DNA of 64,000 nucleotides from Candidatus Collierbacteria bacterium RIFOXYD2_FULL_45_13 (GTDB lineage Bacteria; Patescibacteriota; Microgenomatia; UBA1400; MFAQ01). The notes below the pieces were generated by a model. It did not search any database. It was not told the DNA's origin and saw only the letters and a program-made list of their open reading frames with translations. A program made the position numbers and the translations under genes. The stretch spans positions 1,025,252 through 1,089,251 of the forward strand of contig MFAS01000001.1 of NCBI GenBank assembly GCA_001774685.1. Direction: 5' to 3'. Positions 3,054-64,000 of the stretch are shown here, one piece after another (position 1 is the first letter of the stretch; each line of letters begins with the position of its first letter).

Positions 3054-3189
3054 AGAACCTCCATTCCTCTCGGTTCGAATGTCAAAGGAAAATACTAGGC
3101 GTATTCTACTCTAAAGCCACTCATAGTCAATTTTGATCCCAGTAAGTATATAATCCAGTCCAGCAAGTACCCTAACTTTCGGAGGAATC

Positions 3190-36506: not shown

Positions 36507-36580
36507 TTCATTTTATCCTTTTTCAAATATTTTGGTCTCTTCCCAATTTACTCCAAATCAACTACAATTTGTAGTAGCTT

Positions 36581-36889
36581 ATGAAAAAAGCTATTGGCAC
36601 TATCTTTCCATTTCTAATAATTCATCTCATTTGCTGCGGCAGTATTCTTCTGTTTCTTATCAGTTCCGGCTATTTATTACTACTTTCCAACGAAAGTCAA
36701 AACAAATGGTTTCTCCTCCCCAGCCTTCTCGCTCTTTTCCTTGCGTGGCGGGAACTAAACAAAATTGAACAAAAACCTTGGAAGATACTACTAACCGTTA
36801 TTATTTATCTGATCATCAGTTACATTTTTATTACTTATTTATTCATCCCTTGGTGGATACCGGGCTATGAAGGTGGACCATTACTCTAA
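36581..36889 (+). CDS. MerT-like heavy-metal transport membrane protein
   Basis: First TM carries a vicinal Cys pair (HLICCGSILLFLISSG), and ...SLLALFLAWRELNK resembles MerT (...ACCLGPL... / ...ALFFAWRRIYR). 102 aa, 3 TM. Confidence 0.55.
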   Translation: MKKAIGTIFPFLIIHLICCGSILLFLISSGYLLLLSNESQNKWFLLPSLLALFLAWRELNKIEQKPWKILLTVIIYLIISYIFITYLFIPWWIPGYEGGPLL

Positions 36890-39016: not shown

Positions 39017-39805
39017 TTACTTCAGCAATTCATCAATGATGGCCTTGAAAACGCTATACGGTTGAGCACCGACGATTTTAATACCATCAATCTCGCCATT
39101 ACTTGTGGACTTACCGATAAAGAAGGTCGGCGTACCTGAGGCTCCTACCTTTGCGGCATCAGCTAAATCTTTGTCCACTTCGGTCTTAAACTCACCGGAA
39201 TCCAAACACTGCTGAAATTTACTCACGTTTAGGCCCAGTTCTTTTGCGATGACTGGTAGTTGGTCAAGAGCCAAACCTGTCCCATTGGAGGTTGTTTTAG
39301 TAAAGATCTGATCGTGATATTTGAAGTACGCCGTGTCTCCGCCTTGCTTCCTGGCACACTCAGCCGCCTCAGCTTCCTTGGGGGCGTTTTGATGGAAACC
39401 AAGAGGCAAATCACGAAACACCATCTTAACTTTTCCGGTATCGATGTAGTCTTTTTTAATTTGTGGATAAGTATCGGTAAAATATTTTTTACAGAACGGG
39501 CATTCGTAGTCCGAAAATTCAATCAAGGTCACCTTAGCCTTTTTGTCTCCCAATATCGGGTCGTCATCCACAGATACTTTTACCGGTGCGCCGCTATCTT
39601 CCGGAGCTTGTTGAGCTGGCGGCGTATTCCTACTACCAGCTCCCAATACTGGTTGACCAACACCATTTTTAAGATACTTAACCTCGGTCCAAAGCGAACC
39701 CAGAAAAAAGGCCGCCACGATTAGAAGAACCACCAATGCTGGAGCATAACTGTTATGTTTTTGGTTGGGACTCGAAATCACTTTTTTTATTTTTTCGACT
39801 GACAT
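39017..39805 (-). CDS. DsbA-family thioredoxin-like thiol:disulfide oxidoreductase (membrane-anchored)
   Basis: N-terminal TM and the CPFC active site (FSDYECPFCKKYF). DsbA fold pattern with a C-terminal ...GTPTFFIG (cis-Pro loop). Confidence 0.8.
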   Translation of the reverse strand: MSVEKIKKVISSPNQKHNSYAPALVVLLIVAAFFLGSLWTEVKYLKNGVGQPVLGAGSRNTPPAQQAPEDSGAPVKVSVDDDPILGDKKAKVTLIEFSDYECPFCKKYFTDTYPQIKKDYIDTGKVKMVFRDLPLGFHQNAPKEAEAAECARKQGGDTAYFKYHDQIFTKTTSNGTGLALDQLPVIAKELGLNVSKFQQCLDSGEFKTEVDKDLADAAKVGASGTPTFFIGKSTSNGEIDGIKIVGAQPYSVFKAIIDELLK

Positions 39806-39898
39806 ATATTTTGGATGTAACTAATAAACAATTACCCTACTACAAGTGTAGTAAGGAAATCAACAATTGTCAACAGAGGGTGTTGAATAACTTCGTCT

Positions 39899-39922
39899 TG
39901 TCATCCTCGCGAATGCGGGGAT
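39899..39922 (+). repeat. 24-nt direct repeat GTCATCCTCGCGAATGCGGGGATC (hairpin-forming), copy 1. A second hairpin, ATTCCCGATCAGGTCGGGAAT, sits at 39937-39957
   Basis: Identical 24-mer recurs at 41409-41432. Both are followed by similar AT-rich ATA.AAATAAG sequence. Confidence 0.8.
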
Positions 39923-40008
39923 CTATATAAATAAGTTCCAGATGGATTCCCGATCAGGTCGGGAATGACAAATAAATGCATTATTCAACGGTCTCGTCAA
40001 CACCAATT

Positions 40009-40959
40009 TTAGATATGGGAAAATAAAGCCTCCACCACCTTTGATTCACAGATGTTTGTACAGTTTTTATCCTTTGAACACAAAAGAATGGCGTCTCCGC
40101 CACCATTGTGATATTCAAATGCAGTAACTTGGCTGAGAGATAACCCCACCAGAACTACCAGGGAGACAAGGCTGACGACAATGTTAGTTACCGGAGATCT
40201 CCTTCTCTCGACTTTTTGATTAACCAATTTTTTAACTCTATACTCCAAAGTATCCCATTCTCCCAAAGAAGGGGCAAAATTAAAGGTATTTTTGTGGTCA
40301 TGGCTCAGCAGTTTTTTTAGTACCGATATTAATGATTTAGAATTTTTCATCCCCCTTATAGCCGCCCTATCAGCCTCAACCTCATTCAAAATGCGATATC
40401 TTTTTGAAACATCCGAAATAACTGGAAAGAATGGAAACATCGTTTGCACGACGGAAGCAAAAAGGCAAGTAAAAGCATCTTTGTTTTCTAGATGGTATCT
40501 TTCGTGTCTCATTACCGCTTCTAATTCAATCTCAGAAAGAATATTAACCAAACCTGTAGACACATAAATCTTAGTATTAATAAAACCAAAACAAAAAGCA
40601 GAGGGGTGATCACTCAAATAAACAGATAGCTTGTTTTGAAGACCTAGTTTTTTAGCCATCCTTTTAATTACAGGGCTTCGAACAGTTGATGCAGACAGAT
40701 CTCTGCCAATCTTCGAGGTCTTTACCATAGTCGCCACTAACTTTATAGTTATATACATAAGCATAACCAGAAACACCATCAGACTGGCTTCTCCTAAATT
40801 ATTTGGCAGTCGTATTGGCAAACCATCAATCACCTGCTGGCAGTAGTAAATCGACTGGTGAAAAAATATGAGAACATACTTCCGGAAAAGGCTTCCCAAC
40901 ATCATGCTAGAGAAAGCAAAAAAACCAATCAGAACCATGAAGTATCTATTTACTTTCAT
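40009..40959 (-). CDS. BlaR1-like M56 family zinc metalloprotease lacking a PBP sensor domain. Short Cys-rich C-terminal tail
   Basis: HExxH (MRHERYHLEN) in the M56 context with 4 TM. 316 aa, against ~600 for BlaR1. C-terminus ...LLCSKDKNCTNICESK. Overlaps the BlaI-like gene by 14 nt. Confidence 0.7.
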   Translation of the reverse strand: MKVNRYFMVLIGFFAFSSMMLGSLFRKYVLIFFHQSIYYCQQVIDGLPIRLPNNLGEASLMVFLVMLMYITIKLVATMVKTSKIGRDLSASTVRSPVIKRMAKKLGLQNKLSVYLSDHPSAFCFGFINTKIYVSTGLVNILSEIELEAVMRHERYHLENKDAFTCLFASVVQTMFPFFPVISDVSKRYRILNEVEADRAAIRGMKNSKSLISVLKKLLSHDHKNTFNFAPSLGEWDTLEYRVKKLVNQKVERRRSPVTNIVVSLVSLVVLVGLSLSQVTAFEYHNGGGDAILLCSKDKNCTNICESKVVEALFSHI

Positions 40960-41323
40960 GGGTACCCAAAAGCCTTAATAACTCTTCTCGTTTCTCTTTT
41001 TGCAAACTTTCGACTGATTTGGCAAACGAAACTGTTGCTGACTCCCCGAACGAATCAAAAAAGTTATTAAGAAAAGATTTGGCAATTTTTTTACTATATT
41101 CTTCGCTGGTGGACTTTGGAGAGAACACAAAGGCCATACCTTCGTTTCTTTTATTAACCATACCTTTTTTGTAGAGTCGGTCTAGCAGTGTTGCCACTGT
41201 TGTATAAGCCATAGGTTTGGCTTTTCCAAATTTATTCACCACATCTCGCACATGACATTTTTTAAGATCCCAAACCACAACCATCACTTCTTGCTCCAAT
41301 GGACTTAACTTTGTTTGTATCAT
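40946..41323 (-). CDS. BlaI/MecI/CopY-family winged-helix transcriptional repressor
   Basis: LSPLEQEVMVVVWD...VRDVVNKF...YTTVATLLDRLYKKGMV matches the penicillinase-repressor family fold. Confidence 0.75.
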   Translation of the reverse strand: MIQTKLSPLEQEVMVVVWDLKKCHVRDVVNKFGKAKPMAYTTVATLLDRLYKKGMVNKRNEGMAFVFSPKSTSEEYSKKIAKSFLNNFFDSFGESATVSFAKSVESLQKEKREELLRLLGTHESK

Positions 41324-41408
41324 AAGATACTACTATTGTAGTACAATTTTAAAAAGGGTAATTTTCTACAAATATTTGTTCGATGTATTACAATAATTTA
41401 TCACCCAA

Positions 41409-41432
41409 GTCATCCTCGCGAATGCGGGGATC
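41409..41432 (+). repeat. 24-nt direct repeat GTCATCCTCGCGAATGCGGGGATC, copy 2 (divergent promoter region between blaI-1 and the DUF305 gene)
   Basis: Exact match to 39899-39922. Confidence 0.8.
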
Positions 41433-41455: not shown

Positions 41456-42043
41456 ATGACCAAACAACCTTTTCTTTATCTCGTACTCGGTCTTCTTGCC
41501 GGCGCTCTCATCACTTCGGCATTCTTATCACCCAACAGATCAGAAACTTCGTCTGACTCCAATATCGACCGCCACTTTATCGAGCAAATGATTCCCCATC
41601 ACGAAGATGCTATCACCATGGCAAACTCCGCCCTAAAAAAATCCAAGAAATCGGAAATAAAAACTTTGGCTCAGAACATCTTAAAAAGCCAGGGTGATGA
41701 AATTGCTCAAATGACTCAGTGGTACGGCGAGTGGTTCGGAAAAGAAGTTCCCCGTGGTGCAACTCAGATGGGTACTCATGGCATGATGGGCTCTGGAAGC
41801 AGTATGCATATGGGTTTACTGGGAAACGAAACAGACATTCTTTCTCTTGACACTGCTGTAGATTTCGATAAAGAATTTATTAGACAAATGATCCCCCATC
41901 ACCAGATGGCCGTCATGATGGCAACGATGCTGGAAAACAGCACGGATAAGTCCGAAACGAAACAACTGGCCAAAAACATCATCATCGCCCAAAATAAAGA
42001 AATCACCGACATGCGATCCTGGTACTCCACTTGGTACAAATAA
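41456..42043 (+). CDS. DUF305 family protein (secreted, two internal repeats)
   Basis: Two copies of the DUF305 motif: DRHFIEQMIPHHEDAITMA and DKEFIRQMIPHHQMAVMMA. N-terminal signal/TM. Confidence 0.8.
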   Translation: MTKQPFLYLVLGLLAGALITSAFLSPNRSETSSDSNIDRHFIEQMIPHHEDAITMANSALKKSKKSEIKTLAQNILKSQGDEIAQMTQWYGEWFGKEVPRGATQMGTHGMMGSGSSMHMGLLGNETDILSLDTAVDFDKEFIRQMIPHHQMAVMMATMLENSTDKSETKQLAKNIIIAQNKEITDMRSWYSTWYK

Positions 42044-42357: not shown

Positions 42358-42380
42358 CCTGCAGGGCCTGGCCCTGCAGG
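42358..42380. repeat. REP-like 23-bp palindrome, copy 1 (just 3' of the RAYT gene)
   Basis: Exact sequence CCTGCAGGGCCTGGCCCTGCAGG, a perfect palindrome around a central T. Confidence 0.9.
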
Positions 42381-42387
42381 TAAAAAA

Positions 42388-43071
42388 CTACTCATCTAAA
42401 TCAATCATCTCGTAATAAACTTTCTTAATATCTTCCATGTCTTGTGGATCTTCTACGAAGGATTGGTATGTATTCCTTCTATTTATTTTTGAAAAGTTTG
42501 AAAGTATCTCCTCAATCTTTACCCAATTTTGTTGAAACAATCCCAAGTAATTTCCATAACTAGAATATTTATACTCCACCAGACCTGCAGGGCCTGGCCC
42601 TGCAGGCAAAATGTCAATTGGATTCCGATGAATATATTTAGTTATATATACAAACTGATCTTCATTTTCAATCAAAACAGTCTTGTACCTGCTTTGAAAC
42701 AAACCACCTACTCGTTTGTATTTCTTATTAAAATACATCACGTACTTCAGCACTAAAGATTGCATGAATTCCGCGATACCACGATCGGTCGATTGTTTTA
42801 TCAAAAAATGGAAATGGTTGGGCATCAAGCAGTAGGCTAGCAAATCAATCTGATCATGGTAATTCTTAAGAACTTTCGATGGTGATACCTCCTGCAGGGC
42901 CTGGCCCTGCAGGATGGGCATCTCGAGATAAAATTTCATATATCCTAGGAAGACCTTGTAATCTTGCTCATCAAGAAAAATCGCCCGCTTCTCCACTCCT
43001 CGATTAAAGATATGGTAATACCCACCAGCCCCATATTCCTTTCGACTGTTTTTTTGTGGCATATACCACAA
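42388..43071 (-). CDS. IS200/IS605-family Y1 (HUH) transposase, likely REP-associated tyrosine transposase (RAYT), carrying two in-frame REP insertions
   Basis: YHIFNRGVEKRAIF...AYCLMPNHFHFLIK (HuH) ...GGLFQSRYK (catalytic Tyr). Flanked by two copies of the 23-bp palindrome and containing two more, which encode PAGPGPAG and LQGQALQE. Confidence 0.8.
   Translation of the reverse strand: MWYMPQKNSRKEYGAGGYYHIFNRGVEKRAIFLDEQDYKVFLGYMKFYLEMPILQGQALQEVSPSKVLKNYHDQIDLLAYCLMPNHFHFLIKQSTDRGIAEFMQSLVLKYVMYFNKKYKRVGGLFQSRYKTVLIENEDQFVYITKYIHRNPIDILPAGPGPAGLVEYKYSSYGNYLGLFQQNWVKIEEILSNFSKINRRNTYQSFVEDPQDMEDIKKVYYEMIDLDE
42584..42606. repeat. REP-like 23-bp palindrome, copy 2 (inside the RAYT CDS, in frame, encoding PAGPGPAG)
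   Basis: Exact copy. Confidence 0.9.
42891..42913. repeat. REP-like 23-bp palindrome, copy 3 (inside the RAYT CDS, in frame, encoding LQGQALQE)
   Basis: Exact copy. Confidence 0.9.
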
Positions 43072-43094: not shown

Positions 43095-43117
43095 CCTGCA
43101 GGGCCTGGCCCTGCAGG
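43095..43117. repeat. REP-like 23-bp palindrome, copy 4 (between the RAYT start and the copA stop)
   Basis: Exact copy. Confidence 0.9.
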
Positions 43118-43125
43118 GTACCGGA

Positions 43126-46100
43126 TCATTTAGTTTGGTTTTGTACCAATTTAAAATAATTTTCCTTGAACTCTTTCGACACAAAGTGCATCTCATCCAG
43201 AACCGTAAAGTTCTTTTTGGCTACCCCGGCAACTAGCACATCACTGCCAAAGAGTCCGGTTATTCTATCTTGGTTGTTTGTAAACAGTTTCTCCTTCTTC
43301 ATCATGGCTGCTTCATTGTAACCAATATAAATCGGCAGGAATCTCTTACCTTCAATGTTGTAACTCAGCTTATACGGATCCACTATTCCCTTAAGCTGTT
43401 CAGGAGTATTCTTCCCGTCCAGAATGTAGAACAGTTTCAGCTCATCATAAGGAGTCTGGGCTACGACCAGGTCAGATCCGTCGACTTTAGCAAATGCCTC
43501 TTTACCCATCAAGTGATACTCGTCCAAAATTGTATTGGTAGGAGCTAGGATTCCCGCTATTCTTACCTTGGGCACTCCAAAGAAGTTATCGATAGTGTCA
43601 CCGACTTTTCCAAATAATTTTTCTTCTCTCATCATCTCGGCCTCCTTACTACCAATCACGATTCCCGGAACTTCACCCGACATATCCAAACCGCCCTCGG
43701 CTACTTTAATGTTTCCATTCACCGTACCGGCACTCAAGAACATCTTTGTCTGTCCTTCCTCAGTAATCAGCACCCTTGATTCTCCTGCAGTCAAAAGCTG
43801 AACTATCAAAGTATTTATTCCCGGCTGCGTCTGGGCATAAGTCTTCACCACACCCATATTTTCTTTTGTCGAGATCGTGGCAAACTGCCAGAAGATAAAC
43901 AGGAAGGCGGCGGTCATCACTACCGGAGCCAGTTTTGATAACAGGTTCCATCCCTTCGGATTAAATCTTTTTAACACTAGTGAGTTACTTACGACCGACA
44001 CGGACGACAGTGTCATGGCCAGTCCCGCCAGCTCCGGTTTGAGTATCAGACCAATTCCGGCAAAGATTCTGGCGGCCACCGGGATTCCCAGAACGTTGTA
44101 GAACAAAGCGAAGAACATGTTTTGTCTGATCTTATCGACAGTTTCTTCACTGAGTTTGATGGCTGTCAGGACTCCATTCAAATCATTGTTCATAATGATT
44201 ATTCCACCGGACTCCAGAGCAATGTCCGCGCCTGACGCCATGGCAATCCCCAGATCGGCCTGCACCAAAGCGGGTGAGTCATTGATTCCGTCCCCCACCA
44301 TCGCCACGGTTTTACCCAGCCCTTGAAGTTTTTTAACTTCCTCGGCCTTATTCTGTGGCAACACTTCTGCGAGCACGTTGGTAATACCTATCTGCTTGGC
44401 AATCGCATTCGCTGTCCTTCGGTTATCCCCCGTGATCATGTAAACTTCAATCCCTTTGTCTTGTAGTTTTTTGACTACTTCGGCAGTGGATTCTTTTACC
44501 TGATCTGCGACCGCGATAATTCCTAAGATCTGTTCTTTGTTGGCAATCAGCATGGCTGTCTTACCATCTTCTTCCAGTCTTTCCAGATCCATAAAGGAGA
44601 AGGCTTGGACTTTCTTCGACTCCATCAGTCTTCTGTTGCCGATATAGTAAGTCTGTCCGGCAATGACGGCTTCTACTCCGTGTCCCGGAATTGCTTGGAA
44701 GGATTCCACGGGAGTTTGCAAATCCACTGAAGAGATTCTTGTCTTGCAGTAATCCACAATGGCAGCTGCCAGTGGATGTTCCGACTTGGCTTCGACAGCA
44801 TTCAGCACCGTCAAGATTTCCTGTTCGGCTTTATTGGAATAATTAATAAAGTTAGTCACTTCCGGTTTCCCTTTTGTCAGAGTTCCCGTTTTATCAAACA
44901 CAATCGCGTCAATCTTGCAGGCCGTCTCCAGAGGCTCTCCGCCTTTGATTAATATTCCCAGCTCCGCACCCTTACCTGTCGCCACCATAATGGCTGTTGG
45001 TGTCGCAAGACCCAAAGCGCATGGGCAAGCGATCACAATCACCGACACAAAGGCCAGCAGGGCAAAGGTTAGTGGCATGCCGAGAAGAAAGTACCACACC
45101 GCAAAAGTCAGCAGAGCGATACCAATCACGACCGGGACAAAGATAGCTGAGATTTTGTCGGCAAATCCTTGTATCGGAGCTTTTGATCCCTGCGCATCTT
45201 CAATCAGTCTCACAATCTGAGAAAGAACCGTATCGGCACCGACTTTACTTACCTGGAACTCAAAACTACCTGTTTTATTAATTGTGGCGGTATACACTTT
45301 ACTTCCCATCTGTTTCTCCACCGGAATACTTTCCCCTGTTAGAGCCGACTCATCTACCGCACTATTGCCGGTCACAATCACGCCATCGACCGGTACTCTT
45401 TCGCCGGGCCGGACCAGAACAATATCACCCACTACTACCTTTTCTATCGGCAGATCCTCAGGCATTCCATTACGCATGACTCTCGCGGTTTTAGGAGCCA
45501 GCCCCATCAATTTCTCGATCGCCTGTGAGGTTCGCCCTTTAGCCTTGGCCTCTAGCCACTTTCCAAGTGCCACAAAGGTAATTAGTAATGCCGCTACTTC
45601 GAAGTACAAATTCCCGATCTTCATTCCGTTTAGTCCATAAATCGATCCGGTTTCCACTGTAAACTTCAAAAACTCAAGCAGACTATATACATAGGCTGTC
45701 AGTGTTCCGATAGCGATCAAACTATCCATGCTAAAGGTTTTCATTTTTAAAGCCGAAATTGCCCCACGAATAAAGTTATTACCTACCCAAAACTGAACGG
45801 GGGTCGCAAGCACCAAAGAGATAATTCCACTGATTGGCATAATTACTTTGGCAAAGGGAAGTCCTGCCACAAAGTCATAGATCATAAAACCCACCATCGG
45901 TAAACTTAAAATTAATCCGGTGAGAAACTTCCTTCCCCAATACCTAATCTCCAAAGATCTTTTTTCGTTTTCACTTACTCCGGCACTCTCTTCGGGCAGT
46001 GTTGCGGTATAGCCGGTTCTTTTTACCGCTTCTTTAAGCTCACTTGGACTAACCGCCAGAGATTGATATTTTATTCTGGCTTTACTGGTCGCAAAGTTAA

Positions 46101-46533
46101 CATTCGCTTCGGTAACTCCTTTAGTTTTCACTAGTGATCTTTCAATCAGTCCGGCGCAACTGGAACAATGCATCCCTGAGATATTTAGGTAAGCAATCTG
46201 ACTATCCGACTTTTCCTCTATCATTGTCTCGCGACTTGGCTGGACCATATCAACGATTTCACTATCTAGAGTTTTTGAGTTTTTGAGTTCTTGAGTTTTC
46301 TGTATTCCGTTCCCCGTGATCGACGTCGCCGTATACCCTGCTTCCTTAATGTTTTCAATCAGTTTATCTTCCGTAATTGCCTTCGGATTGTATTCCACGT
46401 CCACCTGTTTTGTCGCTAGTAATGCGTTAACAGACTTCACTCCTTTTAGTCCTTTAAGATTCAAAGAAATGAGTTTTGGGCAGGACTCGCAGTGCATGTC
46501 GGCAACTGCAAATGAAGTTTGTTTATAGTTCAT
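43126..46533 (-). CDS. copA: Cu+-exporting P1B-1 ATPase with two N-terminal HMA domains and an unusual ~330-aa C-terminal extension containing an internal duplication
   Basis: HMA1 [11 protein letters not shown] and HMA2 [11 protein letters not shown]; TGES (ALTGESIPV); CPC ([12 protein letters not shown]); DKTGTLT; [10 protein letters not shown]. After the last TM there is a ~330-aa tail with two similar ~50-aa segments (…[24 protein letters not shown]… and …[24 protein letters not shown]…). Confidence 0.85.
46263..46298. repeat. GAGTTTTT/AAAAACTC octamer tandem repeat (x4), in frame in the copA HMA1-HMA2 linker (encodes [12 protein letters not shown])
   Basis: The same tandem octamer recurs at 56764-56799 and 60468-60495. 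Confidence 0.7.
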
Positions 46534-46538
46534 ATTTT

Positions 46539-46757
46539 TTATTTTGTAACACTGGCTGCGTAACCGGTTTCCTCAATTGCGCTAATTATTAACTCAGGAG
46601 ACACTTTTTCGGTATGGCTGACAATAACCGTTTTGTCCTTCAAGGAAGCGTTAGAACTTACCACACCCGGTATCTCTTCCAAGGTAATATTGATTAATTT
46701 TGGACACGACTCGCAGTGCATGTCCGGAACCGAGAACTTGATTGTTTTTGTACTCAT
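46539..46757 (-). CDS. copZ: HMA-domain metallochaperone (CopZ-like)
   Basis: 72 aa with [11 protein letters not shown], the same variant motif as HMA1 of the adjacent ATPase. Confidence 0.8.
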
Positions 46758-46826: not shown

Positions 46827-48362
46827 TTATTTATTTCCTCCACAAGATCCCGTACCACTACCTCCACAACCACACCCTTTCGCTCCGGAACCGACGGGCT
46901 CTGTGACTGTCCCCACCGAACCCTGACTATCCACTACCTCGATCGTCCCCGAAACCATACCCATCCAGCAGGTAAACTTGTAGACACCAACTTTTGCTGG
47001 TGTAAACTCTCTTGTTGAGACCTGTCCTGGAATCAAATCAATCTGTCCTTCAAACAGCTTAGAAATAATGGCATTGGTACATCCGCTGGTGCCGGTATCG
47101 GTAACTTCCATAATGGTTGGAACTCCAACTCTAATCTGAAAGCGGTTAGGTGAGTATCCTCTTGCCGATGCTTCCATTTTGATAACTTGCTTTCCCCCCA
47201 CCATCGGCACCAGATTTATTACTCCTGCTGTTGTGGTCCTTCCCAAGATTTGTCTTGTTCCAATTCCGGCAATCACATCTCCGACATTGGTAAGTCCAAG
47301 CACCGAGAGCTGGCTGTTAACATTAAAAAGTGAGAAAGCAAGCACCAAAATCCCCGCCAGAGTCGAAAAGTTCTTCGAAGAGTTTTTATCAGCCAACATC
47401 TTGGTACTCCCTAGTCCAATGGCCAAAAGACCAGGAACTGTCCCAAGTGCAAAGAGACCCATTATCAGAGCTCCTTGCACCGGTGATCCCGAGGCTAAGG
47501 CCAACGCCTGGGCCGTTACCGTAAATCCACAAGGTAAGAAGAATGTTAAAGCACCCATAAATAAAGGTGACAGTTTTCCTTGAAAATTATTTTCATCCGA
47601 GACACTTCTAGTAATTGATTTTGGTAATCTAAACTGGAACTTTTGCACTGCTTTTACCCCAAGCATCTGCAAACCAAGAACAATCATCACCACAGAAACC
47701 GCTATTACGAGCATCGCAGAAAAAGACGGAGACAAGCGGAAGAAGTTACCCACAAAACCAAGAATCGCTCCAAAGAAACCATATCCGGCCACACGCCCAA
47801 TGTTAAACAATATATGCGGTTCTGACTTTGTCGCTAGGGAATCGTTCTCACTATATTTAGACATCCACTGCTTAGACATCGATAACACCAAACTGCCTAC
47901 CAAAGCCGCACAGCTGGAAACCCCAGCTAGCAACCCAAAAAGGAAAAAGACCGGCAAAGCCGATTGAGAGTTTACGGAAACTAGTGAGGCAAACCCAGTC
48001 TTTTGGAGTATGTAGAATCCCATCAGAAATAAAGCCGCCACCATAAAAGGCACAAACCTATCATTAGGATTACCTTCATCTCTCACCTCACAAGAGATAT
48101 TTTTAGTTTTACTTTGTTTTTGAAAAGGCTCGGTTGAGAAGGCATAGCCATCCCCAGCGAAAAATCCATTCAAGAAATCAACCGATATTAGGTGATCTTT
48201 TTCCGTCTCAATACTCAGTGTTTCTTTATCCAAAGAAACATCAGCCATGATAACCCCCTCAGTTTTCTTTAGTCTCTTTTCTATGATCAGTTCACAAGAG
48301 GCACAGTGCAGACCTCTGATGTAGAAAGTAGAGACTGTCCGGTCTTCTTTGTTGCTTAACAT
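46827..48362 (-). CDS. Three-part fusion: N-terminal HMA domain + DsbD_2/TauE-like multi-TM domain (Cys in separate helices) + C-terminal Cys/Met-rich soluble domain, with a Gly/Cys-rich tail
   Basis: GLHCASCELI (HMA). Membrane domain with ...AGVSSCAALVG... and ...FFLPCGFTVTAQ.... C-terminal ...YKFTCWMGMVSGTIEVV and a GCGCGGSGTGSCGG tail. Confidence 0.65.
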   Translation of the reverse strand: MLSNKEDRTVSTFYIRGLHCASCELIIEKRLKKTEGVIMADVSLDKETLSIETEKDHLISVDFLNGFFAGDGYAFSTEPFQKQSKTKNISCEVRDEGNPNDRFVPFMVAALFLMGFYILQKTGFASLVSVNSQSALPVFFLFGLLAGVSSCAALVGSLVLSMSKQWMSKYSENDSLATKSEPHILFNIGRVAGYGFFGAILGFVGNFFRLSPSFSAMLVIAVSVVMIVLGLQMLGVKAVQKFQFRLPKSITRSVSDENNFQGKLSPLFMGALTFFLPCGFTVTAQALALASGSPVQGALIMGLFALGTVPGLLAIGLGSTKMLADKNSSKNFSTLAGILVLAFSLFNVNSQLSVLGLTNVGDVIAGIGTRQILGRTTTAGVINLVPMVGGKQVIKMEASARGYSPNRFQIRVGVPTIMEVTDTGTSGCTNAIISKLFEGQIDLIPGQVSTREFTPAKVGVYKFTCWMGMVSGTIEVVDSQGSVGTVTEPVGSGAKGCGCGGSGTGSCGGNK

Positions 48363-48406
48363 ACTACATAGTGTAGTTGGTTAAACATTCTCTGTCAAGA
48401 GGGTAT

Positions 48407-49324
48407 TCAGTGGAGCTCCAGCACCGAGGAAATAGCGGACAAACACAAGGTCAAATGAGGGCAACTGTAGAAGTTTACCTTAGTCACGAGGTAAGCAAAA
48501 ACCAACGCTCCTACCCCAGTCGAACAGGCCACGCCAAGCACCATCTTTTTATTGAGCCTCTTCCTTCCAACTAGCAGACCAATTCTCTCGCTCTGGCTAC
48601 TAAAGAAATTAATCCCGGCTAACATGGCAGTGTCTCCCCAGTTCAATCGTTTGTACAGAGCCGTAATCAGGGGCAGTCCTGTTCCCAGTCTTTCTTCGGC
48701 CTTTTTGTCGGCACACACTTCGACCAAGGTATAAAAGTAGCCAGCCAGCTTTGTCTTCCCCGGGAAACTGGGCAAAATCTTCTCAACCATTCCTACCACA
48801 GTAGTTCGCAACGGGTCTCTCGACTGGGCATGATTGAGTTCATGCAACACCATCGCTTTGAGTTCCTTAGAACCATGCATTTTGTGAAGGCTCTTAGATA
48901 TGTATATTTTTGGAGACCACAAGCCGGCCGTAAAGATCTCCCCACCAGCTGAATCGAAGAGAACTTTCTTCCCGGTTTGCGAACAGATCTTGAGTCCACC
49001 CACAAACATTCTTGTTTTTCTTACCATCTGCACCGTTTTTAAGGCAACATTCAAAGCTCGCCATATTAAAGCCAAGCTTAGTAGCCACAACCCGAGAGAT
49101 ATCCAGAGCTGAGATAAATTACCATAACTTTCGAGACTGTACCCATACTTTCTGGCGTCGAACAAATAAACTATCAACATCAGTGTCCCAGGTGAACTCT
49201 GAAAAAACACCCACAGTATCGAGGCCAAATAGATAATACCCAGAGCCAATATGGCCCAAAAGTACAGGTCCGATAATTTACTTAGTTTTCGATGATTCAT
49301 TCGATTTAGTACTATCCTCAACAT
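48407..49324 (-). CDS. BlaR1-like M56 zinc metalloprotease, second copy, sensor-less. C-terminal CPHLTLC
   Basis: HExxH (VLHELNHAQS) with 4 TM, 305 aa. Overlaps its BlaI-like partner by 47 nt. Confidence 0.7.
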   Translation of the reverse strand: MLRIVLNRMNHRKLSKLSDLYFWAILALGIIYLASILWVFFQSSPGTLMLIVYLFDARKYGYSLESYGNLSQLWISLGLWLLSLALIWRALNVALKTVQMVRKTRMFVGGLKICSQTGKKVLFDSAGGEIFTAGLWSPKIYISKSLHKMHGSKELKAMVLHELNHAQSRDPLRTTVVGMVEKILPSFPGKTKLAGYFYTLVEVCADKKAEERLGTGLPLITALYKRLNWGDTAMLAGINFFSSQSERIGLLVGRKRLNKKMVLGVACSTGVGALVFAYLVTKVNFYSCPHLTLCLSAISSVLELH

Positions 49325-49670
49325 ACTGCTTGAGTAGCTCCAGATCTCCTTTATTATTTTTCAACTCGTCTACAAACTGAGAGATCGCTAATCCCCCAAA
49401 ATCATTTACGAGGTTGCCATAGATCGCCGACAAGTTTTTCTTCACAAAAACCTCTTTTTCCAAACAAGGACAATACTCAAAGGCTTTTCCGCACATTTCC
49501 CTCTTTAGGATCTTCTTGTCAGCCATTCTTTTGAGCACCGTCATAATCGTAGTGTAGGCATGATCGCCTCCCAGCTTTCCCAAGACTTCCTGTGGTTTGA
49601 GTGGCTTTTCAGCCTCCCAGAGAATGTTCATCACCTGCTCCTCAAGCGGTCCAAATAATTTGCTTTTCAT
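49278..49670 (-). CDS. BlaI/CopY-family repressor with internal Cys cluster (CGKAFEYCPC)
   Basis: EEQVMNILWEAEKPLKPQEVL...YTTIMTVLKRMADKKIL winged-helix pattern of the BlaI family. The extra Cx6CxC is absent from classical BlaI. Confidence 0.7.
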   Translation of the reverse strand: MKSKLFGPLEEQVMNILWEAEKPLKPQEVLGKLGGDHAYTTIMTVLKRMADKKILKREMCGKAFEYCPCLEKEVFVKKNLSAIYGNLVNDFGGLAISQFVDELKNNKGDLELLKQYVEDSTKSNESSKTK

Positions 49671-49722
49671 ATACTACGTATTGTAGCATAGACTATTATA
49701 TCGTCGCCTCGAATCTACAATC

Positions 49723-49778
49723 TCCTGTAGGGCCAGGCCTTGAAGGATGAGTTTCCTATAAGGCCTGGCCCTAACGGA
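49723..49778. repeat. Degenerate, split REP-like element: CCTGTAGGGCCAGGCC-(22 nt)-GGCCTGGCCCTAACGG in the blaI-2 / DsbD_2 divergent promoter region
   Basis: Two half-sites related to the REP palindrome form a 16-bp inverted repeat around a 22-nt loop. Confidence 0.55.
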
Positions 49779-49807
49779 AGCAATCAAATAAAATATAATT
49801 TAACCAA

Positions 49808-50863
49808 ATGCAAAACACCAACTTACTCATCATCTTCCTCACCGGTCTCACCACTGGCGGTCTCACCTGCCTAGCCCTCCAAGGCGGACTACTGACCTCG
49901 GTTATGGCCAAAAGAGAGGAAGAGTTCCTCAACACTTCTTCCAAAAAAACCCTGCGAGAATCTTCCTCAAAGATAAACTCCGGTAACTTGGTACCGGTTA
50001 TCTCTTTTCTCTCCGGCAAACTTTTCATTCACACCCTCCTGGGAGCTCTACTTGGCTTGCTCGGCTCGGCTATCACCCTTTCTCCGATCACTCGCGGTTG
50101 GCTCGAAGTTTTTATCGGTATTTACCTTTTTGGTATTGCCGGTAATCTACTGCACCTACACCCTCTGTTCCGTTATTTTGTCATCACGCCTCCCAAGTTT
50201 CTGGCCAAACTAGCCAAAAACGAATCAAAAAGTAATTCCGTCTTTGCCCCTGCCCTTCTCGGTCTCATGACGGTTTTCCTCCCTTGTGCCACCACTCAGG
50301 CTATGGAAGTAATCGCCATCGGCACCGGAAATCCTCTTTATGGCGCCGCCATCATGTTTGCTTTTGTCCTCGGTACCTCTCCCACTTTCCTCATTTTTGG
50401 CTTCCTTCTCAATCAAGGCTCCACTTGGTTAAAAAAATATTTCCCTACTGTCGCGGCTACCGCTATGTTTGGCATGTCTATTTACAGTATCAACGCCGGC
50501 ATTGGTCTCATGGGCTCCGTCTATACCATTCAAAACTTTATCTCAGCGGCCAAGTCCGAACCGGTTCTGGCCAGCAACTCCGTTCTGGGCGACAAGGTCC
50601 AGACTACTACCATCACAGTAGCCAATTCCGGTTACACCCCCAGACAAATCACCCTCAAAAAAGGGGTTCTGACAAAACTAAAATTAATCACGAATAATGT
50701 CCAGTCGTGTTCACGCTCCTTTACCATTCCCAGTCTTAACATTCAAAAGCTGTTGCCCGTGACTGGTGAAACCACCATCGAATTCACCCCCAAAACCACT
50801 GGCCCTCTCGCCTTCTCCTGCTCCATGGGCATGTACACCGGCCGTTTCAATATTATTAATTAA
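49808..50863 (+). CDS. DsbD_2/TauE-like multi-TM protein with C-terminal Cys/Met-rich soluble domain (paralog of the 46827..48362 core)
   Basis: ...GGLTCLALQGG... and ...VFLPCATTQAMEV... in TM helices. C-terminal ...LAFSCSMGMYTGRFNII parallels FTCWMGMVSG of the paralog. Confidence 0.6.
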   Translation: MQNTNLLIIFLTGLTTGGLTCLALQGGLLTSVMAKREEEFLNTSSKKTLRESSSKINSGNLVPVISFLSGKLFIHTLLGALLGLLGSAITLSPITRGWLEVFIGIYLFGIAGNLLHLHPLFRYFVITPPKFLAKLAKNESKSNSVFAPALLGLMTVFLPCATTQAMEVIAIGTGNPLYGAAIMFAFVLGTSPTFLIFGFLLNQGSTWLKKYFPTVAATAMFGMSIYSINAGIGLMGSVYTIQNFISAAKSEPVLASNSVLGDKVQTTTITVANSGYTPRQITLKKGVLTKLKLITNNVQSCSRSFTIPSLNIQKLLPVTGETTIEFTPKTTGPLAFSCSMGMYTGRFNIIN

Positions 50864-50879
50864 ATTTTTATTGAATATA

Positions 50880-50960
50880 TTGTGCAGAGGCGCCAGCAAA
50901 AAGCCGCACGGAGCGGATCCGCACTCGTACTCGAGGGACGGAGGTCGAGTACAGCTTTTT
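50880..50960. promoter_or_regulatory. GC-rich, multiply palindromic intergenic element upstream of the copZ-like gene (candidate operator or structured leader)
   Basis: GCAAAAAGC...GCTTTTTGC outer inverted repeat enclosing GAGCGGATCCGCAC (near-palindrome) and GTACTCGAGGGACGGAGGTCGAGTAC (8-bp inverted repeat). Confidence 0.35.
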
Positions 50961-50998
50961 GCGCGGCTCGAACAATCAAAATAAAAATTTAAATCAAA

Positions 50999-51246
50999 TG
51001 TTTAACTTTTTCAAACCAAAAACCATCAGCATCACCCCCAACACCGAGTCAATTACTTTACAGCTTTCCGGCCTCCACTGTTCCTCTTGTGCCGTGAACA
51101 TCGATCTGGCTCTCGAAGACCTCCCTGGCGTGATAGCCAAAACCAACTACGCCAAGTCCGAAACCAAGATAACCTTCGACCCCTCCCAAACCTCTCTCGA
51201 TGCTATCCACTTCACCATCCGCGACCTCGGGTACAACATCATATAG
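50999..51246 (+). CDS. copZ: HMA-domain metallochaperone (CopZ-like). Track ORF begins at 50959; the ATG at 50999 is preferred
   Basis: LSGLHCSSCAVNIDLALEDLPGV, with a βαββαβ-sized ORF. Confidence 0.7.
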
Positions 51247-60257: not shown

Positions 60258-60390
60258 AGGCACTTTGTAGCCCGGCGATGATCTACTTTCGCAACCAATT
60301 GCTCAGCCACTATCATCGACGCTGGCCCGTTTCACTTCTCTGTTCGAAATGGGAAGAGGTGGTTCCAAGCCGCACAAATCACCGGACAGA
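60258..60390 (-). rRNA. rrf: 5S ribosomal RNA
   Basis: The reverse complement reads TCTGTCCGGTGATTTGTGCGGCTTGGAACCACCTCTTCCCATTTCGAACAGAGAAGTGAAACGGGCCAGCGTCGATGATAGTGG..., which aligns with bacterial 5S (…CCCATGCCGAACTCAGAAGTGAAAC…). Confidence 0.85.
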
Positions 60391-60868: not shown

Positions 60869-61579
60869 CATGTATTCCCCCTATTACTAAGGGCATGGAC
60901 TATATCACCTTCCGATTCCTCGGAAGACCGACGTATTATGGAATAAATTCCATCTACTGATTTAGCAAATCAATAAGTCTCTACGGGGTTACAGATCTTG
61001 AATTTCTTCCAAATGGTGCTTTACCATTTGTGAGTCTACGGTTCTTTTTCTTGAATAATTTAGATTTCGGAATTCATCAATCAACTCTGCTACAGATATA
61101 AAATCCTGCTTTGTTTTGATTCCCTCCATCTTATCCAAGATCAATAGCATTAGTTGTGCTTGTTTCACTTTTAATATTAAAAACTTCATGACTTTAGAGA
61201 GCAATGCCCTGATCGATTTCTTATCAGAAACTATTAGCTCCACCATGCCGTCTTTTCGATATCTCAAATGACCCAAGTTTAATTTTTCATATATTTCCGG
61301 TAATCCTTTTTCTCCATTGTCTTTTTGATAAAAGACAACCGAGGGTGATATCTGAAAGTCATATTTATAAGTTGAGTTTTGCTTCAACTGGACATAAATA
61401 CTTCCATCAGCATCCAGAAAACCAGCGATATATGACCAAAAAATGCTTTTAACCATAGACAAAAAGATTTGAACTTCCCTCGGTATTATCCTAGCACACG
61501 ACAGATTGATTGTGTATTAGGACTTCACCGATATAAGTCAGTTTTGCAAATTGGATTACTCCAATGGGCCGCCAATTTG
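60869..61579 (-). mobile_element. Probable group I intron in 23S rRNA at the I-CreI-type site (between ...GGGTTCAAACCGTC and GTAAGACAGGTTGG..., E. coli ~2593), encoding a LAGLIDADG homing endonuclease
   Basis: Conserved 23S sequence is interrupted by ~710 nt. The interruption contains the ORF 60989..61462. Boundaries are approximate, within a few nt. Confidence 0.7.
60989..61462 (-). CDS. LAGLIDADG-family homing endonuclease (intron-encoded)
   Basis: N-terminal SYIAGFLDADGSIYVQLKQN is a single LAGLIDADG motif. 157 aa, and the ORF lies inside the rRNA insertion. Confidence 0.75.
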   Translation of the reverse strand: MSMVKSIFWSYIAGFLDADGSIYVQLKQNSTYKYDFQISPSVVFYQKDNGEKGLPEIYEKLNLGHLRYRKDGMVELIVSDKKSIRALLSKVMKFLILKVKQAQLMLLILDKMEGIKTKQDFISVAELIDEFRNLNYSRKRTVDSQMVKHHLEEIQDL

Positions 61580-61623
61580 ACGGTTTGAACCCAGCTCACG
61601 TAGCGCTTTAATGGGCGAACAGA

Positions 61624-61658
<35 letters not shown>

Positions 61659-61669
61659 CTGAGCCGACC

Positions 61670-61963
61670 AAAATATATATGAAATTACATATGTATTGTG
61701 CTCTCCAATCTATTACTAGTGGTTTGGACTATATCTTTCGTAAAAATAACTTTTTTTATTTCACTCGTTATTTTTTCTTATTGGCGTTTTATATCTTTTT
61801 CAAAAAAAGATATCTCATCTCATACCTAAACGGTACTTGAATCAGTCTCTACGGGGTCAATCCTTTCGGACGACTTCCCACGATGTTAACCTTAAGTGTT
61901 CATTTCAAGGCCTTCTTCGTTATAAGCCAAATTTATTTCCTCGACATGTTTGGGTCATTGTCT
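61670..61963 (-). mobile_element. ORF-less ~294-nt insertion in the 23S rRNA peptidyl-transferase region (between ...GGTTCGCTACCTCGAT and GGTCGGCTCAGCGCATCCTGG; E. coli ~2500); probable small group I intron
   Basis: Flanking exon sequences are contiguous in E. coli 23S. The insertion is AT-rich and shares the motif ACCCCGTAGAGACT with the other intron. Confidence 0.5.
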
Positions 61964-62381
61964 ATCGAGGTAGCGAACCGCACCGTCGCTGTGGACGCTC
62001 AGGTGCGACTACTCTGTTATCCCCGGGGTAGCTTTTATCCGTTAAGCCCGGCACCTCCCACGAAGTGCACGAGGATCACTTAGACCTACTTTCGTATCTG
62101 ATCGACTTGTATGTCTCACAGTTAAGCACCCATATACCTATGCGCTTACACTCCGATTTCCATCCGGAGAAAGGGTACCTTTGTGCGCTTGCGTTACTCT
62201 TTAGCAAGCAACCTCCCCAGTTAAACTACCCACCAGACAGTGTTCCCTCCAAAGTTTGCATTTGGATTAGGTTAGAAACGTACGTCGCAAAGAGAGGTAT
62301 TTCATTGTCGCGCCCTCAATAAATTGAAAACGCTCCCTCCTATGCTAAACAGTTACAGCATACATTTCAGTGCCAAGTTGT

Positions 62382-62415
<34 letters not shown>

Positions 62416-62487
62416 CAGTAGGCCGCATCTTCACAGCCATTTCAAATTCGCCGAGTCTCTTCTCAAGACAGTTATAAAGTCGTTTCA

Positions 62488-62532
<45 letters not shown>

Positions 62533-64000
62533 ATAGAACAGTTATAGTTACTGCTGCCGTTCACCGGGGCTTCAATTGCAGGCTATCATTCTTGCGAATG
62601 GTCACCCACGCATTTAACCTTCCGGCACTGGGCAGGTTTCAGCCTGTATACCTAAGCTTTCGCTTTTGCACAGACCTGTGTTTTTGTTAAACAGCCGCTT
62701 TATACTCTTTTGTTGTAGCCCAGATTTCAACCTGGGCAAGGCATCTCGTAGAACTTACGCCTAGCTAATTTGCCGAGTTCCTTAAGAAGAGTTCTCTCGC
62801 TATCCTTGGTCTACTCGACCAGAGCACCTGTGTCGGTTTGTGGTACGGATTATTTGCACTCTCACTGCGACGCTTTTCTCGGAAACTGAAGTCATCCATC
62901 TTGCCCACCTTACGGCAGACTCGTATTCATAGCTCGTGTAAACGCCACTGCGGATTTGCCAACAGCGACTGACTTACTATTTAAGCGTATGTATCTTCAA
63001 CACACCGCTTGGACTATCCAACTTCGTCCCGCCCCAGTTAATAACGATTGCAAACAAGGACTGGAATATCAACCAGTAATCCATCGGCTACGCCATATAG
63101 GCCTCACCTAAGGGTCGCCTTACCCTACGTCGACGAACGTTGCGTAGGAAACCTTGCTCATTCGGATATAAAGATTCTCACTTTATTACGCTACTCATGC
63201 CGGCATTCTCACTTCTTGCTGCTCCAGAGAACCTTCCGGTTCGCCTTCAAAGCTACAAGAACGCTCCTCTACCAACCCGTATTGCTACGTGTTCCCAAAA
63301 TTCGGTAATATATTTAGCCTCGTTACGTCTTCAGTCGTGCATCTCTCGGCTAGTGAGCTGTTACGCTTTCTTTCAAGGATGGCTGCTTCTGAGCCGACCT
63401 CCTAGGTGTCTGAGAAATAACACGTCTTTTACCACTTAATATATATTTAGAGACCTTATTTGTGGGTCTGGGATGTTTCCCTTTCGCCCCCGGAGCTTAG
63501 CCCCCGGGTACTGACTCCCGCACAATTGATATGGGTATTCGGAGTTTGGTTGAAAATCACGATTTTATTCGTGAAGTTCATTCAGCACTCTACCCCCCAT
63601 ACCGTAAATGCGAGGCCATGCCAAAACATGTTTCGAGGAGAACCAGCTATCTCCAGGTTCGTTAGGCATATTACCTCTAACCACAAGTCATCCGATGATT
63701 TTGCGACATCAACCGGTTCGGGCTTCCAGTCAGATTTCTCTGACCTTCTCCCTGCTCATGGTTAGCTCACCTGGTTTCGGGTCTACACAACACAACTACA
63801 CGCCCTGTTAAGACTTGGTTTCCCTTCGGTTTCCCGGAACATATCGGTTAACCTTGCTGTGTTGAGTAACTCGCCGGCTCATTCTTCAATAGGCACGCCG
63901 TCACCCACGACTTATTAGGTCGGGGCTCCGACTGTTTGTTAGCAATCAGTTTCAGGATCTTTTAATAGGGCTACTCACCCTTCTTTTCACCTTTCCCTCG

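Follow-up and report, generated by a model that had tools for sequence, protein, structure and literature searches.

The question raised by this locus is how a BlaR1-like membrane protease could receive a signal when the penicillin-binding domain of BlaR1 is missing. The locus lies in a 64-kb stretch of DNA (the window) from an uncultivated bacterium of the Patescibacteria (candidate phyla radiation, CPR), and consists of a gene for a BlaI/MecI/CopY-fold winged-helix repressor of 130 aa (BlaI-2; 49278..49670, minus strand) and, overlapping its 3' end, the gene of M56-2, a short zinc protease of the membrane that resembles BlaR1 (48407..49300, minus strand). A preliminary description of the window had recognised a BlaI-like and M56 pair at 48407-49670, and both open reading frames (ORFs) are present there, the protease with its HELNH motif and 305 aa. 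The same description called the pair sensor-less and drew attention to a cysteine cluster in the repressor. The penicillin-binding domain is indeed absent, but the protease carries a conserved Cys/His tail after its last transmembrane (TM) helix. The emphasis is here shifted from the repressor Cys cluster to this tail and to the spacing of the operators. In our estimation the pair is rather probably a PetR/PetP-like copper-responsive proteolytic switch over a leaderless HMA-DsbD_2-cupredoxin/CopZ/CopA operon. Judged from sequence conservation, the tail is a candidate extracytoplasmic metal or thiol sensor and is more probable as the sensing element than the cysteines of the repressor wing.

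A short BlaR1-like protease and its C-terminal tail

The longest M56-2 ORF (48407-49324, minus strand) encodes 305 aa. Since every homologue begins at the equivalent of M9, the start is probably at 49300 and the product 297 aa long. The zinc-binding motif HELNH was located in the translation at 48830..48844 (minus strand). Alignment with 15 homologues indicated that H161, E162, H165, E202, D206 and R247 are invariant, and the HExxH...ExxxD arrangement, the BlaR1-type signature, is intact. TM-like segments occupy residues 8-47, 61-87 and about 252-275 (297-aa numbering). When an AlphaFold2 (AF2) model of M56-2 (predicted local distance difference test, pLDDT, 79.5) was compared with known structures using Foldseek, the top five matches were Staphylococcus aureus BlaR1 chains determined by cryo-electron microscopy (E 3e-4 to 2e-3, probability 1.00), with 8exs, 8ext, 8exp and 8exr at E 3e-4. 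The invariant HExxH...ExxxD residues, the BlaR1 fold match and the gene pairing led us to assign M56-2 to the BlaR1 kind.

Several results weigh against this assignment. M56-2 scores under the Pfam cutoffs both for M56 (PF05569; 21.6 bits vs 31) and for M48 (17.9 vs 20.3), and a sequence profile of its family searched against the PDB recovered only HtpX/MJ1213 (about 3e-4) and no BlaR1. The link with BlaR1 is visible only at the level of the fold, where TMq is just 0.38-0.40 and the rmsd about 20 Å, BlaR1 being a domain-swapped dimer and the model a monomer. M56-2 is thus as near to M48/HtpX as to M56 in sequence searches, and an NCBIfam scan of the protein gave no match, as could be expected if the protein served general quality control in the manner of HtpX/M48 and its gene simply lay in the operon of an ordinary autoregulated repressor, no signal-dependent proteolysis being involved. 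We consider this explanation very improbable. The repressor-protease pair, with its overlapping or adjacent stop and start, is kept across distant Patescibacteria, and it is BlaR1 and not HtpX that leads the fold matches across the whole protein, TM helices included. Furthermore, in all 8 cases the CxHLxxC tail accompanies a copper operon, while other tails occur with DsbA-like or thioredoxin-type genes.

M56-2 stops about 25 residues past the last TM helix. Its C-terminus reads ...FYSCPHLTLCLSAISSVLELH (alternatively written ...CLSAISSVLELH) and not ...CLS, the ending first given for it; the tail peptide itself is NFYSCPHLTLCLSAISSVLELH (48410..48472, minus strand), with C288, H290, C294 and H305. 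When genomes were scanned using the alignment of the BlaI-2 family, 79 loci were returned, the closest from Patescibacteria/Microgenomates (Collierbacteria, Shapirobacteria and others); related loci are cited below by L numbers. Among the aligned M56-2 homologues C288 is invariant, C294 is conserved in at least 90%, and H290 and the terminal His are found in nearly all. The pattern F-[YF]-x-C-x-H-L-x-x-C is retained in the orthologues of L001, L002, L004, L005, L006 and L017, which are only 30-39% identical. An exhaustive profile search gave roughly 2,500 homologues at E<=1e-10 and 154 clusters of 50% identity at E<=1e-30, and the tails were typed in 145 full-length top representatives. A CxHx3C tail was present in 56 of them, and another 33 had a Cx5-7Cx3C tail of the type found in M56-1, the protease of a second pair in the window. 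Before the last TM helix (segment 252-273) M56-2 has a K/R-rich stretch, GRKRLNKK, which, together with the topology of BlaR1 and PetP, would place the tail outside the cytoplasm at the position of the BlaR1 sensor. Three points count against so much weight being given to the tail: 56 of the 145 related proteases have neither motif, and a Cys tail is therefore not universal; the tail part of the model is of low confidence (pLDDT 50-59); and the topology is deduced from the positive-inside rule and analogy.

The repressor and the cysteines of its wing

BlaI-2 matches Pfam Penicillinase_R (PF03965) at 4e-22 and 79.2 bits, above the cutoff of 22.6. The best PDB match of the family profile is 2g9w (Rv1846c of Mycobacterium tuberculosis; 2e-16), BlaI and MecI being matched as well, and the 13 best Foldseek PDB matches of the AF2 model (pLDDT 89) are all MecI, BlaI or Rv1846c. 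With helices at 8-19, 26-32 and 39-51, wing strands at 55-68 and further helices at 72-127, the modelled fold is a winged helix joined to a three-helix dimerisation domain. The sequence CGKAFEYCPC reported in the preliminary description is found in the translation as C60-G-K-A-F-E-Y-C67-P-C69 (49464..49493, minus strand). It had been assigned to the stretch that joins the winged helix to the dimerisation helix; in the AF2 model it falls within the beta-hairpin of the wing (strands 55-60 and 63-68), with C60 at the tip and C67/C69 at the base. These three residues are the sole cysteines of BlaI-2, and the C-terminus (...QYVEDSTKSNESSKTK) is Cys-free.

A Cys cluster in the DNA-contacting wing of a repressor located at a copA/copZ operon is compatible with direct CopY-like sensing. 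C67-P-C69, with or without C60, would then bind Cu(I), distort the wing and free the DNA, and M56-2 would only clear the repressor or have an unrelated housekeeping function. The CxC motifs of CopY each bind one Cu(I) (PMC7253601; PMC11672702), and pairs of CxC type have arisen independently near the cluster position, as PCxC in P0027 and P0032 and as YSPCMC in L013. Conservation of the cluster, however, holds for close relatives only, and the condition set in the preliminary description, that the repressor Cys be kept in homologues, is only half borne out. The full C60/C67/C69 set is confined to relatives at least 81% identical to BlaI-2, C67-P-C69 alone persists down to 68% (68-74%), and the majority of relatives with 55-65% identity carry none of the three. 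Orthologues with an unchanged operon, operator and protease are among those that lack the full cluster: L001 and L017 have no wing Cys, and L002 and L004 have the C69 position only (YSPC). From the geometry, C60 and C67 lie about four residues apart on opposite hairpin strands, and a shared metal ion would require unfolding of the wing. BlaI-2 is also without the C-terminal CxCx4CxC of CopY, and the M56 gene is translationally coupled to it with an invariant active site. We therefore regard direct sensing by the wing as unlikely to be the mechanism. Because the wing Cys are absent from most orthologues that share the operon, operator and M56 partner, they cannot have been the ancestral means of sensing, and this distribution suggests a recent, lineage-specific addition outside the core mechanism. 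In the BlaI-2 lineage they may nevertheless supply a direct CopY-like Cu(I) input. Membership of BlaI-2 in CopY proper was considered and rejected, as the C-terminal Cys motif is missing and BlaI-2 reaches only 42 of the 121.95 bits that TIGR02698 requires.

The dimerisation domain contains a possible site for the protease. F99 is conserved in at least 90% of relatives and is aligned to the Phe of the BlaI cleavage site; as Q98-F99 aligns to the N101-F102 site of BlaI, we propose it as the cleavage point. F99 is equally conserved in repressors that have no M56 partner, which speaks against this proposal, and its conservation was consequently dropped as proof of cleavage.

These M56-less repressors (L010-L016, L018-L022, L024, L026, and the ORF at 663-1019 of L002) lie at HMA-DsbD_2-cupredoxin/CopA loci of Shapirobacteria-like genomes. 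At these equivalent copper loci 13 of 14 start with MNCxCxCxxKC, their C-terminal domain is shorter and its last helix is absent; the N-terminal Cys tag occurs in none of 11 M56-partnered repressors. By sequence, the M56-less proteins look like direct metal sensors of CopY type in which the Cys motif has moved to the N-terminus. The complementarity of tag and protease is the pattern expected if sensing sits in the protease when there is one and otherwise in the repressor.

Operators and promoter architecture

The two divergent regions upstream of the repressor genes had been singled out in the preliminary description as places for a common operator, and a shared dyad, TACTAC-N4/5-GTAGTA, was found directly 5' of each repressor gene. 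The core CTAC-N4/5-GTAG occurs six times in the window against an expectation of 0.68, a number reached in none of 100 shuffled sequences, and five of the six dyads sit 1-40 nt 5' of the starts of metal or thiol-redox genes. At pair 2, O2a (TACTAC-GTATT-GTAGCA, N5; 49672..49688, core 49674) lies 3 nt from the BlaI-2 ATG and has a counterpart at the identical position 5' of the BlaI orthologue in L001, L002, L004, L017 and L080. O2b (TACTAC-ATAGT-GTAGTT, N5; 48362..48378, core 48364) touches or overlaps the ATG with which the HMA-DsbD_2-cupredoxin gene begins, and it includes the -10 hexamer TACACT; its counterpart recurs at the identical position in L001, L002, L004, L005, L017 and L080. A third N5 dyad (AACTAC-AATTT-GTAGTA; 36560..36576, core 36562) is situated between a second Cu-type P1B ATPase gene (34248-36506, minus strand) and a small CC-motif membrane ORF (36581-36889, plus strand). 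The second pair in the window, BlaI-1/M56-1, is associated with O1a (TACTAC-TATT-GTAGTA, N4; 41328..41343, core 41330), which is 4 nt from the BlaI-1 start and divergent to a DUF305 gene, and with O1b (TACTAC-AAGT-GTAGTA, N4; 39838..39853, core 39840), which overlaps the -10 of a DsbA-like gene promoter.

The dyad footprint was then counted in the window and 29 related Patescibacteria loci. This gave 16 N5 and 37 N4 dyads with the consensus TACTAC-N-GTAGTA, those of the related loci standing directly 5' of the BlaI orthologue, the HMA-DsbD_2-cupredoxin gene and copA. Dyads in matching positions were present in about 25 related Patescibacteria loci. We predict that TACTAC-N4/5-GTAGTA is the operator of this BlaI family and that it overlaps the promoter -10 or the start codon. 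Two other dyads were set aside as operators. One, CTACA-N6-TGTAG (49715-49730), was considered as an auxiliary site, but it overlaps an insertion resembling repetitive extragenic palindromic (REP) elements, in a segment missing from the 51-nt intergenic region of L080; the other, an N4 dyad at 48793 inside the M56-2 ORF, is without TA flanks (ccattcCTAC...GTAGttc) and was taken as chance. An Rfam scan of the intergenic regions detected no known RNA element.

A promoter scan identified TTGACA-17-TACACT (10/12) on the minus strand at 48398->48370 and again at 39873->39845. In both promoters the -35 TTGACA is perfect and the -10 hexamer is the left operator half. The -10 at 48370 ends 7 nt ahead of the A of the ATG at 48362, and the HMA-DsbD_2-cupredoxin operon is thus probably leaderless, with an operator that spans -10 to +1. 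The junction ...GTAGTATG... recurs in many related loci, which indicates that the leaderless architecture is conserved. The operators stop 1-6 nt before the start codons (48362-48378, 49668-49688, 41321-41343, 36571-36583), where a Shine-Dalgarno sequence would not fit. With no room for a Shine-Dalgarno sequence and the -10 within the operator, these mRNAs should be leaderless or near-leaderless.

The regulon and the nature of the signal

The genes on both sides of pair 2 are those named in the preliminary description: an HMA-DsbD_2-Cupredoxin_1 fusion (46827..48362, minus strand; 511 aa) and a divergent DsbD_2-Cupredoxin_1 gene (49808..50863, plus strand; 351 aa), both identified by Pfam. The fusion, a probably leaderless target gene, is followed by a CopZ-like HMA protein of 72 aa (46539..46757, minus strand; Pfam HMA 1.4e-13) and by a CopA-type Cu(I) P1B ATPase of 1135 aa with a CPC motif (43126..46533, minus strand; NCBIfam TIGR01511, 2.5e-184). 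The order BlaI - M56 - HMA-DsbD_2-cupredoxin - CopZ - CopA is kept in L001, L002, L004, L005, L006, L017 and L080, and the divergent DsbD_2-Cupredoxin_1 gene has the same arrangement in L001 and L080. Because CopA scores as a Cu-type P1B ATPase, copper (or silver) is the most likely effector of pair 2.

Redox or thiol stress could nonetheless be the signal in place of copper, given the DsbD_2 and DsbA-like targets, and this counts against the copper assignment. The pair would in that case sense envelope thiol/disulfide stress, or a thiophilic metal other than copper (Ag, Hg, Cd or Zn), with the two tail Cys as a disulfide switch and the same proteolytic readout. Membrane domains of DsbD_2 (CcdA-like) type are found among the targets, pair 1 has a DsbA-like thioredoxin-fold protein under its control, and L008 has thioredoxin-reductase-like and DsbD-like genes after the pair. 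HMA domains and P1B ATPases are also not strictly Cu-specific, and weak matches of MerTP/MerP type were obtained for the HMA domain. Against these stand the Cu-type P1B-1 score of the CPC-containing ATPase after pair 2, the predominance of CopZ-like and cupredoxin-like domains in the regulon, and the absence of merA and merR from the window. Moreover, among characterised sensor-less BlaR proteins a signal is known for PetP only, and PetP responds to copper. On this evidence we judge a redox or other-metal signal rather unlikely, and retain copper as the favoured effector.

Two pairs with different operator spacing

The second pair was correctly reported in the vicinity of the first. It is located at 40009-41323 (minus strand) and adjoins metal genes as pair 2 does. 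BlaI-1 (40946..41323, minus strand; 125 aa) matches Pfam Penicillinase_R at 1.6e-25 (90.2 bits vs a cutoff of 22.6), and M56-1 (40009..40959, minus strand; 316 aa, HERYH) matches Pfam M56 above cutoff (3.3e-14, 53.2 bits) and NCBIfam blaR1_generic at 50 bits, under the cutoff of 400. Its tail ends ...LLCSKDKNCTNICESKVVEALFSHI, a C-x5-C-x3-C motif. On its target side pair 1 has the DsbA-like (thioredoxin-fold) gene (39017-39805, minus strand) with O1b at the promoter; the cluster after the pair encodes this protein, a CxxC membrane protein and a YtkA-like protein. On the other side it faces the DUF305 gene (41456-42043), which is divergent from BlaI-1. The order BlaI - M56 - DsbA-like with an N4 dyad was also found in L007 and L009.

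The preliminary description had read the two pairs as a duplication that produced two separately regulated modules. Separate regulation is upheld by the N5 and N4 spacing, which is repeated in related genomes, but a recent duplication is not. The repressors are only 32% and the proteases 30% identical, the tails and targets differ, and L080, the closest relative with a long contig, has pair 2 but no pair 1 on its 14.3 kb. By sequence, the two pairs are old paralogues of different subfamilies with distinct tail motifs and target genes.

Pair 2 and its targets have N5 dyads (49674, 48364, 36562), and pair 1 and its target have N4 dyads (41330, 39840). Each of the 16 N5 dyads belongs to a sequence that also has a gene for a repressor with 56% or more identity to BlaI-2; these sequences are the window, L001-L005, L017 and L080. 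The N4 dyads accompany BlaI-1, pairs of WS6, Dojkabacteria and Saccharibacteria before DsbA-like genes (L007-L009), and the protease-less clade. L002 holds both types, namely a BlaI-2-like/M56 pair with N5 sites and the protease-less BlaI with an N4 site at 645. L006 speaks against a spacing code, as it combines a BlaI-2-like repressor and a CxHLxxC protease with an N4 dyad, and a strict rule equating N5 with the BlaI-2 clade was abandoned for this reason. The overall distribution suggests that the one-base difference in the spacer keeps the paralogous repressors on separate regulons and that the two modules are probably regulated separately.

Pair 1 and its operator are bracketed by an exact 24-nt direct repeat, GTCATCCTCGCGAATGCGGGGATC, at 39900-39923 and 41409-41432; these are its only two copies in the window, 1509 nt apart. 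The repeat can fold into an 8-bp hairpin and could delimit a cassette, or else be a small hairpin of regulatory or REP type.

Comparison with known systems

In Synechocystis sp. PCC 6803 and other cyanobacteria, the PetR/PetP system pairs a sensor-less BlaR protease with a BlaI repressor that is degraded in a copper-dependent manner and has the operator GAC-N5-GTC (bioRxiv 10.1101/2020.07.31.226407; PNAS 2021). As compared by description, in both systems a BlaI-type gene precedes, and overlaps or adjoins, the gene of an M48/M56 protease; this protease measures about 300 aa, has 3+1 TM helices and lacks a penicillin-binding domain. Both have a copper-linked regulon and a dyad with a 3-bp core and N5 spacing (GAC-N5-GTC there, TAC-N5-GTA here). 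They differ in their targets, which are CopA, CopZ and HMA-DsbD_2-cupredoxin for efflux and handling at this locus and plastocyanin/cytochrome c6 (petE/petJ) for PetR/PetP. PetP has conserved M53/M58 as proposed ligands, whereas the TM2-TM3 loop of M56-2 (DARKYGYSLESYGNLSQ) contains no Met, Cys or His. The CxHx3C...H tail after TM4, the wing cysteines and the Patescibacteria lineage likewise set pair 2 apart from PetR/PetP.

CopY, CopR and TcrY of Enterococcus, Lactococcus and Streptococcus resemble BlaI-2 in fold family, in a copA/copZ-type operon and in the possession of CxC pairs. In CopY such pairs are Cu(I) ligands, and the cop box TACANNTGTA is the classical BlaI/CopY box (PMC7253601). 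BlaI-2 differs in having a protease partner and in carrying CxC in the wing rather than in a C-terminal tail. The M56-less paralogues of related genomes are more CopY-like, yet their Cys tag is N-terminal. Regarding the operators, the N4 dyad includes the classical box TACANNTGTA, while the N5 spacing equals that of the PetR site. The pair-2 sites (TACA-TAG-TGTA at 48365, TAC-N5-GTA at 49674) have one base too many for the cop box KACANNTGTA / RNYKACANNYGTMRNY; only the pair-1 site at 39841, where O1b includes the form TACAAGTGTA exactly, fits the 10-bp box.

BlaI/BlaR1 and MecI/MecR1 of S. aureus and Bacillus licheniformis share with pair 2 the repressor fold, the gene pairing, the aligned cleavage-site Phe, dyads of TACA/TGTA type over the promoter, and the HExxH...ExxxD protease between TM3 and TM4. 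M56-2 has 297 aa compared with 585-601 aa for BlaR1/MecR1, and the extracellular transpeptidase-like beta-lactam sensor is absent from it; identity with these beta-lactam sensors was rejected on that ground. The context of pair 2 is metal handling, with no beta-lactamase or PBP2a target.

Sensor-less BlaI/BlaR pairs have been described in M. tuberculosis (Rv1846c/Rv1845c), M. abscessus and Pseudomonas aeruginosa (PvmSR) (bioRxiv 10.64898/2026.08.03.742534). The mycobacterial and PvmSR BlaR proteins are truncated with loss of the sensor domain, as is M56-2, and in sequence no PDB entry matches the BlaI-2 family better than Rv1846c. The regulon of P. aeruginosa PvmSR comprises virulence genes, and none of these pairs is known to govern a copper operon, unlike pair 2. 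We found no Cys/His tail reported for the mycobacterial or P. aeruginosa proteins. The regulon of Rv1846c/Rv1845c reportedly includes ATP synthase and blaC.

Proposed mechanism

The folds and motifs, the operators with their conservation, and the synteny are established here. What we infer is that BlaI-2 binds DNA, that it is cleaved at Q98-F99, and that copper is the signal and the tail its sensor. In the proposed switch a BlaI-2 dimer would bind TACTAC-N5-GTAGTA at its own promoter, at the promoter of the HMA-DsbD_2-cupredoxin/CopZ/CopA operon, where the operator includes the -10 hexamer and extends as far as the start codon, and at the third N5 site by the second copper-type ATPase. M56-2, as a BlaR1/PetP-type membrane zinc protease translationally coupled to BlaI-2, would expose its tail of about 25 residues outside the cytoplasm, where Cys-x-His-x3-Cys...His would stand in for the penicillin-binding sensor domain of BlaR1. 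Engagement of the tail by copper, or by a related thiophilic or redox signal, would activate the cytoplasmic protease domain, which would cut the BlaI-2 dimerisation helix at Q98-F99 and derepress the copper genes. Pair 1 would act likewise on N4 operators over the DsbA-like thiol-oxidoreductase cluster. As pair 1 would work on N4 and pair 2 on N5, the half-site spacing would insulate the two modules.

Neighbouring genes and other features of the window

Several features of the surrounding genes were also recorded. The HMA-DsbD_2-cupredoxin protein ends in a Gly/Cys-rich tail (...GAKGCGCGGSGTGSCGGNK) that is kept in the orthologues of L001, L002 and L005. CopA has a C-terminal extension of about 270 residues past the ATPase core, which ends near residue 860 according to the NCBIfam models; long forms exist elsewhere, with 1124 aa in L080 and a tblastn match of 976 aa in L017 that reaches past the core. 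The second P1B ATPase has CPD, and not CPC/CPH, at its TM metal site (IVIACPDALGLATP), and its N-terminus combines a zinc-ribbon-like metal-binding domain (YTCPMH...CPKCGM) with a Met/His-rich stretch. A further HMA protein is encoded after the divergent DsbD_2-Cupredoxin_1 gene (50959-51246).

A 23-nt palindromic REP-like element, CCTGCAGGGCCTGGCCCTGCAGG, is present in five exact copies in the window (36385-36407, 42358-42380, 42584-42606, 42891-42913 and 43095-43117), where none would be expected. Two of the copies flank, and two lie inside, an ORF at 42388-43071 (minus strand) whose product is Y1/IS200-like and resembles REP-associated tyrosine transposases (Pfam Y1_Tnp 1.1e-10; NF047646 1.9e-11). 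The copy at 36385 is in frame in the N-terminal region of the second ATPase and codes for PAGPGPAG, which the transposase ORF also contains. A degenerate inverted pair of the palindrome (49723..49778) lies between O2a and the divergent gene and is absent from L080. The BlaI/DsbD_2-cupredoxin divergent region of L080 is just 51 nt long (3135-3185), short enough for a single operator to serve the promoters on both sides. The window differs in that the REP-like insertion within 49689-49807 separates the divergent gene from the operator by about 105 nt; this gene has a TATAAT of its own, 8 nt ahead of the ATG. This insertion may uncouple the divergent DsbD_2-cupredoxin gene from BlaI-2 control. 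Elsewhere in the window a 5S rRNA (60270-60386, minus strand) and the 3' part of a 23S rRNA (61529-64000, minus strand) lie about 1.1 kb apart, and no tRNA genes were found in the 64 kb.

Conclusions

If no part of the mechanism holds, an ordinary autoregulated copper regulon of the BlaI/CopY family remains. A broader joint reading, which we offer tentatively and would rate below an even chance, is that a widespread class of BlaR1-like proteases in Patescibacteria has swapped the penicillin-binding domain of about 260 residues for a Cys-x-His-x3-Cys(...His) tail of about 25 residues. In the same reading N4/N5 spacing would insulate paralogous repressors, protease-less relatives would have turned into CopY-like direct sensors through an N-terminal CxCxCx3C, and the BlaI-2 lineage would be acquiring a second Cu(I) input through the wing CxC.

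To our knowledge, almost no transcriptional regulation has been characterised in Patescibacteria, and the locus gives a defined operator and leaderless promoter architecture for this group. It may further illustrate how a difference in half-site spacing prevents cross-talk between two paralogous repressors. For the question of signal perception by sensor-less BlaR proteases (PetP, Rv1845c, the M. abscessus protein and PvmS), it supplies a concrete and mutable candidate, a 25-residue Cys/His tail placed where BlaR1 has its beta-lactam sensor domain, and the protease-less paralogues with their N-terminal Cys tag form a natural control set. If the joint reading with the tail as sensor is true, this would be the first sensor-less BlaR family with a signal-receiving element that can be pointed to.

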